This document shows positions 57,437 to 64,000 of a stretch of 64,000 nt of DNA, piece by piece. The notes beneath the pieces were generated by a model. That model saw only the letters and a program-made list of their open reading frames with translations. It was not told where the DNA came from and made no database searches. The stretch is from an uncultured candidate division Zixibacteria bacterium. GTDB taxonomy: Bacteria; Zixibacteria; MSB-5A5; GN15; FEB-12. The stretch's first letter is position 1. The number at the start of each line of letters is the position of its first letter. The stretch covers positions 207,512 to 271,511 of the forward strand of contig CAWDXE010000001.1 in NCBI GenBank assembly GCA_963806185.1. The letters run 5' to 3'. Made by a program: the position numbers and the translations under genes.

Positions 57437-58985
57437 TCAATTGGAATGGAATGTACTCAGTGCGGGGGAATGCAGCCCGTAGGCAGCCGGGATCTGGTTC
57501 GCGAACTGGAGAATCGGCTCAGGGAACAGACCAAACAGAACGACGCCCACCAAGCCAACCATGACCACGATCATCGCGGCACGGGAAGGCCGGAATGCAG
57601 CGGTGTCGGCGGTGGGATTGAAGTACATAGCGCGAATGACTCCGGCATAGTAGTAGAGGCCGAAAACCGAAGTGAGCAGGCCAATGCCGACCACCCAGTA
57701 GAGCCAGGAGAAGCTCGGGCCTACGCCGGCCATTTTGATGGCCGCGGCGAAAACGTAGTATTTCGCGAGGAAACCGGCCAGGGGCGGTATGCCGGTCAGC
57801 GACAGGAGAAAGACGCTGAGGGTACCGGCCAGGAAAGGAGAGCGGCGCGACAGGCCGTTGTAAGCGTCGATTTCGCATGAGCCGGTCTTGTCTTCGATGA
57901 TGGCTACGATGGCAAAGGCACCCATGTTGGCGAACAGGTAAGCGAACATGTAAAAGCCGACCGAAGCGAGGCCGAGCTCGTTGACGGCGATCATGCCGAT
58001 CATGACGTAACCGGCCTGGGCAATCGACGAATAGGCCAGCATACGCTTGATGTTGGTCTGGCGAATCGCCAGTACATTGCCGATCACCAGTGCGGCATCG
58101 CCAGAGCGCCGGCAATGATTCCCCAATCGTTGGGGCTCATGACCGGATCGTAGAAGGCGAACAATCCGTTGACGATGATCTTGGCGAACGCGACCAGCCC
58201 GGCGGCCTTGGAACCGACCGACAGGAAAGACGCGACCGGGGTCGGCGCACCTTCATAGACATCCGGCGCCCACTGGTGGAAGGGCGGCAGCGCCAGTTTG
58301 AAGCCGAGGCCGGCCAGAATGGTCGCGGTTGCCAGAATCAGCACCACGCCGATATCACCGCCATTGCCCAATTGGGTGATGGCGATATTGACTTTCATCT
58401 GCAGAATGTCGGTCGTGCCGGACAGACCGTACAGGAACGACAGACCGTAGAGCAGCACGGCCGAGGAGAAGGCGCCGATGATCAGATACTTGATGCCGGC
58501 TTCGACGGAAAGGCGATCATCCTTGAAGAAGGCGGCCAGCACGAACAGCGGGATGGTGGTCAGTTCAAGGCCGATATACAGCGACAGCAATTCGTTGCTT
58601 GAGCGCCAGAAACATCATGCCGACGGTCGAGAGCAGGATCAGGCCGAAGAACTCGCCGCGATGGTTGATGATCTTTTCGCTGAACGATGCCGAACGACGA
58701 GCCGATGGCCATGAAGGCGGCGCCGAGGAAGATGATTTTGAAGAACAGGGCGAGCGGGTCGTTGAAGAACATCGTCCCGAAGCCAGACCGAAACCGTAGA
58801 CACCGGCGCAAGAGAGCCCACAGAGAAGCCGGCGACAACCAGGCCGACCATGGCGAGGTAGGCGACGCTGTGGCCGACTTACGGCTGGTGAACAGGTCGT
58901 AGGTGAACACCAGGAGCGCCCAGCCGAAGAGAATGATCTCCGGGGCCATCAGCCAAAGGTTATAGTCGGGCAGTGTCGTTTCCAT
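57437..58985 (-). pseudogene. nuoN: NADH-quinone oxidoreductase subunit N (nuoN), split into ≥3 overlapping reading frames by frameshifts
   Basis: The pieces 58560..58985, 58084..58590 and 57437..58126 are colinear with NuoN/ND2. Each piece ends in a short nonsense tail. Confidence 0.7.
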
Positions 58986-58989
58986 ACGT

Positions 58990-60477
58990 CTAGCGGCCCA
59001 TCAACTGTACCAGGTTTACCAGCGTCGCCTTCATCAGGTCCGAGAGCGGCTTCGGATAGACGCCGATCCAGATGGTCAGCGACCGAGCGGGGCGACAGTG
59101 ATGATTTCGCGCAGGTTGATTTCGGTCAGGCCGCCCCACTTGGCGAGGTCGAATTCGCCGAGAAAGACGCGCTGGACCATCCGCAGCATGTACGCCGCGC
59201 CGAGCACCACGCCGAGCACCGAGATGCCGACGAGAACTCTTGTTGGTGCCGGCGAAGGAACCGACAAAGACCATGAATTCGGAGATGAATCCGGACATGC
59301 CCGGAAGGCCGAGCGAGGCCATGCGAGAAGAAGATCATGATGCCGGTGTACACCGGGAGCTTGCTGCCCAGACCGCCGAAGGCAGCGATTTCACGGGTGT
59401 GGGCGCGGTCATAGAGCACGCCCACCAGAAAGAACATGGCGCCCGTGATCAGACCGTGCGAAACCATCTGGAACATGCAGCCGGCGACCGCCTGTACGGA
59501 ACTGAAGGCGCCCAGCGCCAGCATACAGTATCCCATGTGCGACACCGACGAGTACGCGACCAGCTTCTTCAGATCCTTCTGGGCCATCGAAACCAGCGCG
59601 CCGTAGATGATGCCAATCGCGCCCAGCAGGGCGATCCAGAAACTGAGCGACTGCAGGGCGGCGGGAAACATCGGCCAGCTCACGCGCAGCATGCCGTATG
59701 TCCCCATCTTCAGCAGGACACCGGCCAGGATGACCGAGACGGCCGTGGGCGCCTCGACGTGGGCGTCCGGCAACCAGGTGTGGAACGGCCAGACCGGCAC
59801 CTTGATGGCGAAGGCGATGAAGAAGAAGATGAAGCAAATCATCTGCAGCGTGTAGGGCAAGGTCGACGCCCTTTTCGATCAGTGTCAGCATGTTCAGCGA
59901 TGTGCGGCTCGGACGTGAAGTAAAGAATCAGGATGGCCACCAGCATGAAGATCGAGCCGAACAGCGTATAGAGGAAGAACTTGATGGCGGCGTATTCCTT
60001 GCGCGGGCCGCCCCAGACGCCGATCAGGAAGTACATCGGGACCAGCATCACTTCCCAGAAGACGTAGAAGAGGAAGAAATCGAGGGCGCAAAACACGCCC
60101 ATCATGCCGGATTCAAGCAGGAGGAAGAAGGCGAAGTATTCTTTGACCCGTTTCTCGATGTTAAACGAGGCCAGCAGTGAGATCGTGCTCAACAGTCCGG
60201 TCAGGAACAGCATCGGCACCGAGATGCCGTCGACGCCGAGCAAGTACTGAATGTTGAGGGACGGGATCCAATTGTACGGTCCCTCGACGTAGGCCATGGC
60301 AGTCGAGCCGGAGTAGTTGAAGAAATAATCCCAGGTCAGCCAGGCAGACTGCAACATCGGGATGATACTGACGATGAGCGCCGTCCACCGGATGGCGACC
60401 TTGCTGTCTTTGGGCAGGAACATGACGATGATCATGCCCAAAAGCGGTACGAATATCAGCGAACTCAGTATACCCAT
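58990..60477 (-). pseudogene. nuoM: NADH-quinone oxidoreductase subunit M (nuoM), interrupted by ≥4 frameshifts
   Basis: The pieces 59839..60477, 59126..59860 and 58990..59322 are colinear with NuoM/ND4 ('…[26 protein letters not shown]…'). Junk segments lie between the conserved blocks. Confidence 0.7.
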
Positions 60478-60482
60478 ATGTC

Positions 60483-62612: not shown

Positions 62613-62912
62613 TCACCACTTCATCACGCTGAAGTTATCGGAGTCAACGCCGCGCCAGTTTCGGTAGACGAGCAATACGATCGCCAGGCCGACGGTCGCT
62701 TCGGCGGCGGCCATCGCCACGATGAAGATCGCGAAGATCTGTCCGGACATGCCGGCGGTGGCGACAAATTTGTTGAAGGCCACAAAATTGATATTGGCCG
62801 CGTTGAACATCAGCTCGAGCGACATCAGGATGCCGATGGTGTTGCGGCGCGTAATCACACCAAAGAGACCGATGGCAAACAGGATGGCCGCCAGGATCAG
62901 GTAATATTGCAT
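62613..62912 (-). CDS. nuoK: NADH-quinone oxidoreductase subunit K (nuoK)
   Basis: An apparently intact 99 aa, 'MQYYLILAAILFAIGLFGVITRRNTIGILMSLELMFNAANINFVAFN…'. Confidence 0.8.
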   Translation of the reverse strand: MQYYLILAAILFAIGLFGVITRRNTIGILMSLELMFNAANINFVAFNKFVATAGMSGQIFAIFIVAMAAAEATVGLAIVLLVYRNWRGVDSDNFSVMKW

Positions 62913-63420
62913 CAGGCCCTCTCCCCTCTTGCCAGGACGATGGCGCCGATCAGCGCGGCCACGAGCAGGACCGAGATCAATTCGAACGGGCAGCATGAAT
63001 TCAGTCAGAAGCAGTTTGCCGATCACGAACGTGTTTTTCAACGGCAGGGCGTTGGCGCTAAGTCGCCAGATATCGGTGGCGCCGATCAGAAGCGACGCAA
63101 CGGCGACGAAGAACAGGCAGATGAAGGCCCCGGTGACGGCGTGCTGATTGACCTGGGCGATGCGCTGGCCGGCCAGATTCGAGGTCAACATGATGGCGAA
63201 CATCATCAGAATGGAGACCGCGCCTACATATATGAGCACCTGCGCGGCCGCCAGGAACTCGGCATGCAAGCAGGATGAATATACCGGCCACCGCCGAGAG
63301 CGAGACAATCAACGCCAAGGCGCAATGGAAGATATTCTTGAGACTCACAACGAGCAAGCCGGCGAGCACGATCACAAAAGCGAGGATCCAGAACACAATG
63401 CCGACGTCAGGCTGCATCAT
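62909..63420 (-). pseudogene. nuoJ: NADH-quinone oxidoreductase subunit J (nuoJ), frameshifted
   Basis: The N-terminus 'MMQPDVGIVFWILAFVIVLAGLLVVSLKNIFHCALALIVSL' lies in one frame and the middle 'AEFLAAAQVLIYVGAVSILMMFAIMLTSNL' in another. Boundaries are approximate. Confidence 0.55.
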
Positions 63421-63930
63421 CACTTTGCCTCTCCTTCGGGATCTCCGTCGGGCTTGCGGCATCGGTGCTCGGGCTGCTCGGCGCGGCGACCAGGAGCGGC
63501 GGCCGCAGCCGGAGCTTTCTTCTTTCGGGTGTCGACATAGTCGACATTGCGGCCATTCGCCTGCAACTTCTCCATATCCCAGATGGTGTCGCTCTTGGTG
63601 AGCGTGGAAAATTCGTACTTGGGAGCCATCTTCAGAGCGCTGAAGTTGCAGGCCTCTTCGCAGAGTCCGCAGATAGCAGCAAATGCCGAAATCGATCTGG
63701 AAATTCTGCAGATGACGTTTCTTGGCCTCGTCGCGCGGAGCGTCGATAACGATCGCGCCGGTGGGACAGGCGCGCATGCAGAGCATGCAGGCGGTGCAAT
63801 TGAGTTCGCCGGTTTCCTTATCCGAAAGCAGGACGACGATGCCGCGCGACCGCTCGGGCATGGTCATTTTCTGTTCCGGATACTGAATAGTGATGGCATG
63901 GCGGCCGAGATGCTTGCTGGTGATCCTCAT
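63417..63930 (-). pseudogene. nuoI: NADH-quinone oxidoreductase subunit I (nuoI, 2×[4Fe-4S]), frameshifted
   Basis: The N-terminal frame reads 'MRITSKHLGRHAITIQYPEQKMTMPERSRGIVVLLSDKETGELNCTACMLCMRACPTGAIVIDAP'. The C-terminal ferredoxin motif and tail '…LCEEACNFSALKMAPKYEFSTLTKSDTIWDMEKLQANGRNV' are in a second frame (63420..63629). Confidence 0.65.
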
Positions 63931-64000
63931 CCCGGTGAGGAGTTCTTTATGTCTTTCCAGATTCCCATCGTTATCGTCCTTGTCTCACCAGTACCATTCG

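Follow-up and report, generated by a model that had tools for sequence, protein, structure and literature searches.

Among the closest described counterparts of the genes considered here is the 11-subunit complex I-like operon nuoABCDHIJKLMN, which is devoid of nuoEFG. Intact relatives (loci L002, L006, L010, L011 and L027) carry the genes in the order nuoA-B-C-D-H-I-J-K-L-M-N, followed by genes for a DUF502 protein, an EIIA-CBS protein and a Na/Ca exchanger; no nuoE, F or G is found between D and H in L006 (1-10636) and other relatives, which is the 11-subunit complex I-like form. The stretch analysed here, referred to as the window, comprises 64,000 nucleotides (nt) of contig CAWDXE010000001.1 from an uncultured Zixibacteria bacterium. 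Positions 57437-64000 of its minus strand harbour a Zixibacteria-like nuoI-J-K-L-M-N segment that shares with the described operon the order of I to N, the Pfam families and the downstream synteny. The window holds only the tail of nuoH and the genes I to N, whereas A to D and the absence of nuoEFG are seen in relatives only. The window segment is riddled with frameshifts, which very probably are consensus errors left uncorrected over a limited stretch of a long-read metagenome contig. The underlying nuo operon is predicted to be ordinary and intact, of the normal, functional 11-subunit type.

Complex I genes broken by frameshifts are familiar from the true nuo pseudogenes of reductive genomes, for example that of Mycobacterium leprae. 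Such pseudogenes additionally accumulate stop codons, lose conserved residues to replacement and suffer deletions of diverse size; the window block shows none of these features. Natural decay of bacterial genes is deletion-biased and spans a broad range of indel sizes, with ±1 events gathering at repeats and homopolymers, and bacterial pseudogenes display at least five substitutions per indel.

A different type of disruption has been documented in long-read assemblies: kilobase-scale patches with sharp edges and truncated genes, as observed in the window (Trigodet et al., 10.1101/2025.04.22.649783; nanoMDBG evaluation, PMC13087279). Documented patches and the window block have in common an otherwise good, very long contig and a locus conserved between related populations. 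The documented classes were defined from read mappings, whereas the window patch is known from sequence alone, and its insertion-biased, non-homopolymer spectrum is without description in either of these two studies. A third pattern is that of Nanopore-only metagenome-assembled genomes (MAGs), in which single-base homopolymer indels fragment gene calls, an effect that worsens below about 40x coverage (Sereika et al. 2022, PMC9262707). The window resembles this pattern in having single-base indels that fragment genes, but its indels are mostly located outside runs and one G5 run at the end of nuoN is the sole candidate of homopolymer type.

Frameshift load and state of the repaired subunits

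The intact proteins of L006 and L010 were aligned to the window DNA by a dynamic programme permitting frameshifts. The alignment yielded approximately 21 frame changes between the first, in nuoN, and the last, in nuoI: two in nuoI, two in nuoJ, none in nuoK, seven in nuoL, five in nuoM and five in nuoN. Sixteen are single-base insertions and five are single-base deletions (binomial p = 0.027 for the insertion excess). The density is equivalent to about 1 event per 280 nt (about 0.35%), and the gaps between events fit an exponential, Poisson-like distribution (Kolmogorov–Smirnov p = 0.90; mean 292 nt, standard deviation 267). Several of the frame changes are compensated pairs that are invisible in a list of open reading frames (ORFs), which explains why the first-pass annotation, working from such a list, had counted conservatively with at least 10 frameshifts. 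Its remaining description of the segment holds: the order of nuoI to N is canonical according to both Pfam and orthologue alignment, nuoK alone is unbroken, and large deletions are absent, as the repaired lengths are close to those of L006.

The same alignment method was applied as a false-positive control to 101 Zixibacteria loci. True orthologues of nuoH, J, K, L, M and N were nearly always free of frameshifts and a few showed one isolated call, while clustered calls emerged in a single surveyed orthologous locus, L005. Spurious calls arose only at the variable nuoI termini and where paralogues were aligned.

Once the frames are repaired, the proteins are unremarkable. NuoI, J, K, L, M and N measure 185, 169, 100, 693, 494 and 506 amino acids (aa), compared with 191, 170, 100, 694, 494 and 503 aa in L006, and no in-frame stop interrupts any of the six repaired frames. 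Columns that are invariant among homologues, as defined in alignments with 46-74 sequences, are kept throughout: 201 of 201 in NuoL, 172 of 172 in NuoM, 99 of 99 in NuoN, 7 of 7 in NuoJ and 3 of 3 in NuoK. This retention equals or exceeds the leave-one-out values of intact homologues, and it bears out the high conservation that had been noticed in the unrepaired fragments.

These observations are pertinent to a genuine inactivation, in which the population, or a minor subpopulation, would really carry the indels and the membrane arm would be a young cluster of pseudogenes. The frameshifts are after all present in the sequence as given, and assemblers may write a variant from a minor subpopulation into a contig (10.1101/2025.04.22.649783). 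Nevertheless, the hallmarks of pseudogenes were looked for and the tally was nil, with none of the 472 invariant residues of NuoL, M and N lost and no in-frame stop, despite 21 indels. Decay producing that number of indels would be expected to alter about 16 or more of the 472 residues and to add several stops. The indel spectrum is also at odds with decay: instead of deletions of varied size at repeats, the events are insertion-biased by 16 to 5, almost all 1 nt long and mostly placed away from homopolymers and repeats. Moreover, apart from L005, no surveyed orthologous locus contains a cluster. Genuine inactivation is thus given a slim chance. The preference of the first-pass annotation for indel-type sequencing or assembly error over an old pseudogene is well founded on the single-nucleotide events, the absence of stops, the retained invariant residues, the Poisson-like spacing and the abrupt edge described below.

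The immediate sequence context of the indels was dissected by trying, for each insertion, all single-base deletions in a 25-nt neighbourhood and scoring them against the homologue profile. For 9 of the 16 insertions no optimal repair takes a base out of a run, therefore the inserted base differs from both of its neighbours; an equivalent scan placed three of the five deletions outside runs. The coincidence with homopolymers raised in the first-pass annotation consequently fails for the majority, since these 9 insertions and three deletions cannot be run-length changes. Runs of at least five identical bases amount to 0.76 per kb in the noisy block and 2.2 per kb in the clean part of the window, where approximately 126 such runs in 57 kb have produced no frameshift. 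As most indels fall outside base runs and the block is poorer in long runs, classic homopolymer miscalls of the Nanopore, 454 or Ion type were rejected as the cause.

Recoding by programmed ribosomal frameshifting, transcriptional slippage or RNA editing would be compatible with the perfect preservation of protein information between the shifts. However, a search of the frameshift sites for a common motif, a slippery sequence, an adjacent stop or a rare codon found none; insertions and deletions are mixed, slippage is without homopolymer support, the sites are not conserved among the window and the two comparable contigs presented below, and nearly all relatives have plain open frames. Programmed frameshifting was rejected on the absence of a motif and of site conservation, and recoding of any kind is barely conceivable.

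Edges of the block and comparable blocks elsewhere

The remaining ~57.4 kb of the window contain no split genes and include ORFs of up to 1202 aa. A Pfam scan of all 39 large ORFs revealed that those with matches cover essentially full-length profiles, with not one split, and the three genes downstream of nuoN align to their relatives end to end in one frame. The probability of encountering no event in the next 10 kb at 1 per 280 nt is about 3e-16. Both the intactness of the rest of the window and the abrupt change in error density, claimed at the outset from the ORF organization, are therefore confirmed.

The exact position of this edge may lie slightly further downstream than the first frameshift at 58097. 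A 22nd indel is probable in a G5 run, C5 on the coding strand, that lies just ahead of an out-of-frame TGA: with C4 in place of C5 the predicted NuoN would end in …GLHSPH*, similar to its relatives (…GFI-PH*), whereas the window version carries a 9-aa extension. This event would extend the noisy block nearly to the end of nuoN. Run ERR12037368 is represented by a 5,499-bp Logan contig that is equivalent to approximately 52,560-58,056 of the window and stops 41 nt short of the first frameshift. The Logan gene table for this run places the nuoN stop at that same TGA, 20 nt upstream of the window's stop; as 20 is not a multiple of 3, a 1-nt difference between the Logan assembly and the window is implied in the 3' part of nuoN. 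The Logan stop is thin evidence, pointing in the same direction as the other results. The Logan contigs of ERR12037368 appear to derive from the organism of the window and to be of the same species without being base-identical. This relation is suggested by a 372-aa ABC-2 permease of the window (44000-45118, minus strand), the exact sequence of which was missing from the protein collection by exact look-up: in a Logan contig of this run, the corresponding position is occupied by a gene of 372 aa, beside an exactly identical neighbour.

The neighbourhood of the block also identifies the operon. The trio of DUF502, EIIA-CBS and Na/Ca exchanger genes that follows nuoN in the window also follows nuoN in the intact relatives, and this shared arrangement implies that the operon is orthologous to theirs and occupies the conserved position, rather than being an extra copy. 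A decaying second nuo copy, which the first-pass annotation had kept in play, is thus disfavoured. The rest of the window contains neither further nuo sequence nor a repeat of the noisy block.

Blocks of the same character were encountered in two other contigs. L005 (CAVTJJ010000003.1, a 989-kb contig of soil MAG MFD05942.bin.1.404) exhibits approximately 19 frameshifts, 16 of them +1, at 3490-8511; the 5.0-kb block extends from nuoH codon 153 to nuoM codon 294, outside which nuoA-D, nuoN and the genes that follow it are unbroken. The MAG from which L005 originates is a public GTDB species representative. L161 (ENA ERZ25039603 contig_32523, 357,733 bp) displays approximately 18 frameshifts, mostly +1, over 6.0 kb at 6307-12299, from nuoL codon 63 through nuoM, nuoN and DUF502 to EIIA-CBS codon 104, with intact genes on both sides. 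L005 (1 per 264 nt) and L161 (1 per 333 nt) have frameshift densities similar to that of the window (1 per 280 nt). Both contigs carry Flye-style names, and MFD MAGs are described as Nanopore-only metaFlye assemblies from very complex soils with one round of Medaka (PMC12313526). A Chloroflexia contig, L065 (CAVPBH010000032.1, MFD00032.bin.1.166), has nuoL split into 219, 279 and 297 aa and nuoM into 216 and 391 aa at 5200-9050, with nuoH and nuoN whole. It was rejected as a fourth case, the reference being distant and the intact control L080 having likewise given spurious calls.

The three blocks (window, L005 and L161) have their frameshifts at different sites, the lone near-coincidence being at M204/205 (an estimated ~9% by chance), and the edges of the blocks ignore gene borders and also vary from one contig to another. 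That three Zixibacteria contigs have a block at nuoL-M is what a genuine inactivation could have produced, but these shifting edges, indifferent to genes, argue against it. The three blocks intersect between nuoL codon 63 and nuoM codon 294. This interval includes nuoM codons about 120-290 (L006 8000-8500), the most conserved 500 nt of the 13.5-kb neighbourhood, with a mean nucleotide identity of 78.8% and a maximum of 83.4% among 27 species representatives.

Such a conserved core also invites the idea of a chimeric join, whereby from ~58 kb the contig would continue as the poorly covered genome of another relative, the conserved nuo genes having served as the junction. An abrupt boundary inside a conserved gene, the Logan contig break 41 nt from that boundary and the high conservation of the nuoM core are in keeping with a join, and chimeras at conserved loci are documented (10.1101/2025.04.22.649783). 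On the other hand, the similarity profiles to 48 relatives of the clean NuoN C-terminus and of the noisy NuoN N-terminus, NuoM and NuoL correlate with rho 0.42-0.55, values that fall at the 29th-48th percentile of intact-genome controls, in a test with power only against a different genus-level lineage. Furthermore, the blocks of L005 and L161 are internal, with clean syntenic genes on either side. A chimeric join is accordingly regarded as quite improbable.

Probable origin in an unpolished stretch of consensus

Six of eight window proteins that were looked up exactly are present in NCBI/ENA collections, all on one contig of 1,099,733 bp; three frameshift-truncated ORFs, looked up in the same manner, had no recorded match. 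From the size of this 1.1-Mb contig of an uncultured Zixibacterium we infer a long-read assembly. Long-read metagenome assemblers are documented to generate stretches of more than 1 kb with zero or single-read support, as well as indels unsupported by reads (PMC13087279; 10.1101/2025.04.22.649783). On Nanopore soil data, metaFlye left 44 zero-coverage regions per 100 Mb, and only 56.8% of predicted proteins were near full length (PMC13087279; 10.1101/2025.04.22.649783). The window combines single-base indels of constant density, random placement, sharp edges unrelated to gene borders and a long contig, as anticipated for an assembly patch.

The explanation favoured here is that the block, from about 57.46 or 58.1 kb to at least 63.95 kb, would be a consensus for which the reads were too few or wrongly recruited and which never underwent effective polishing. 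It would thus keep single-base indels like those of raw reads, mostly insertions. The preferred mechanism for this failure is that the conserved nuoL-nuoM segment may act as a repeat between genomes or strains, so that approximately one read length around the conserved core would be represented by a bridging read or by a read of a minor haplotype. Polishing could not fix such a read, because most reads would be recruited elsewhere or the pile-up would be mixed. A plain local drop in coverage would look identical to this repeat model.

A mixed pile-up is a possible contributor. Many inserted bases resemble synonymous alternatives of wobble positions, but the alignment sets them at codon borders by construction. 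Three of the 16 window insertions and 4 of 17 events in L005 fall unambiguously between codon positions 1 and 2, which fits random placement; the notion of a 'doubled allele', in which every +1 would stem from a wobble single-nucleotide polymorphism of mixed strains written twice, was therefore rejected as the sole mechanism.

Several observations weigh against an unpolished patch. Raw Nanopore reads are rich in deletions, and the insertion excess of 16 to 5 is unlike them and unexplained. A near-identical intact copy of the genes from the same organism was not found: the best hit was 69% among genome contigs and 70% among metagenome contigs, and protein searches reached at best 86% for repaired NuoM, 69% for the NuoN N-terminus and 70% for the concatenated variable C-terminal parts of NuoI, J and L. 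In addition, the fact that three contigs have a block at nuoL-M could indicate a locus-specific cause. It could equally reflect ascertainment bias, because only nuo loci were fetched. If the cause were specific to the locus, a real insertion-prone process or a subpopulation with dead nuo genes might have arisen independently in at least three Zixibacteria lineages or, in a milder version, the nuoL-M core might be a systematic trap for long-read assemblers and polishers; the likelihood of this is very low.

Gene layout and significance

The positions of the genes and of the individual frameshifts are collected in Table 1. Pfam matches to the ORF fragments of the minus strand comprise Oxidored_q3 (NuoJ), Oxidored_q2 (NuoK), Proton_antipo_N/M and NADH5_C (NuoL) and Proton_antipo_M (NuoM and NuoN), with Proton_antipo_C also among the families matched; NuoI was identified from orthologue alignment and its CxxCxxC motifs. 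The extra base in the middle of nuoI splits codons of a CxxCxxC motif, and the N-terminus, MGIWKDIK/ELLTGMRITSKHLGRH, agrees with that of relatives only once one base is put back. Directly upstream of nuoI, as in relatives, lies nuoH. The nuoJ stop (TGA 62912-62914) overlaps the nuoK ATG, and the raw ORF list joins nuoK to a nuoJ fragment (ORF 62613-63308). The intact nuoK falls within a 769-nt interval between the events at 62990 and 62221. No internal frameshift affects the last 660 nt of nuoN. The nearest relatives are uncultured Candidatus Zixiibacteriota, with NuoN identities of 60-70% and an identity of up to 86% over 100% of the length for repaired NuoM.

Table 1. Coordinates of the nuo segment, its frameshifts (+1, inserted base; -1, missing base) and the adjoining genes in the window
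Feature	Position	Strand	Remarks
nuoH 3' end	63985-64000	-	last five codons (…EWYW, stop TGA 63985-63987), from window-end translation; truncated by window edge
nuoI (2x[4Fe-4S] ferredoxin subunit)	63420-63968	-	start ATG 63968; -1 near 63946, +1 near 63672
nuoJ	62912-63417	-	+1 at about 63270 and 62990
nuoK	62613-62912	-	99-100 aa; sole subunit without frameshift
nuoL	60483-62602	-	repaired 693 aa; +1 at 62221, 61867, 61554, 61460, 61021, 60999; -1 at 61982
nuoM	58990-60477	-	repaired 494 aa; +1 at 59901, 59867, 59323, 59238; -1 at 59083
nuoN	57437-58985	-	-1 at 58864, 58097; +1 at 58788, 58676, 58603
Noisy block	58097-63946		21 single-base indels in 5.85 kb; open-ended at window edge
Candidate 22nd indel	57457-57468	-	inferred; G5 run 57464-57468 (C5 on coding strand) before out-of-frame TGA 57457-57459
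DUF502 gene	56738-57400	-	first intact gene downstream of nuoN; single frame
EIIA-CBS gene	55823-56731		syntenic single-frame control
Na/Ca exchanger gene	54564-55790		syntenic single-frame control

Elsewhere the window accommodates several genes of unusual appearance. Two tandem paralogues on the plus strand (22600-26046 and 26600-30061; 1148 and 1153 aa) share 93% of their residues and, over 3.5 kb of DNA, 92.9% of their nucleotides, and their longest exact DNA match is only 476 nt despite hundreds of identical residues; they have no Pfam match, and their C-terminus contains a twice-repeated 'DVGDLT.LINNLFITF' motif. Ordinary 6-pyruvoyl-tetrahydropterin synthase (PTPS)/QueD proteins consist of one domain of about 120-140 aa; a 416-aa protein of the window (33464-34714, plus strand) has three stretches of this family (PF01242). 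Large intact ORFs without a Pfam match at E <= 1e-5 are located at 777-2753 (minus strand, 658 aa) and 17420-21028 (plus strand, 1202 aa), and a run of ORFs of 512, 176 and 375 aa at 49864-53087 (minus strand) is also without a match at this threshold. Scans of the window for tRNAs and Rfam families returned no matches.

The biological interest of the frameshifts is low, and they have some value for quality control. An unpolished patch would imply that whole-genome quality scores overlook kilobase stretches with the quality of raw reads, both in the 1.1-Mb contig and in the public MAGs from which L005 and L161 derive. Should the co-location of the three blocks reflect more than ascertainment bias, pipelines of the metaFlye/Medaka type may fail preferentially at conserved respiratory genes when applied to complex soils, and, were the nuoL-M core truly a trap for assemblers, complex I annotation would be corrupted in many soil MAGs. 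As regards the organism itself, taking the frameshifts at face value would lead to its being called deficient in complex I, or to six pseudogenes being reported; metabolic inference should instead make use of the frame-repaired proteins.

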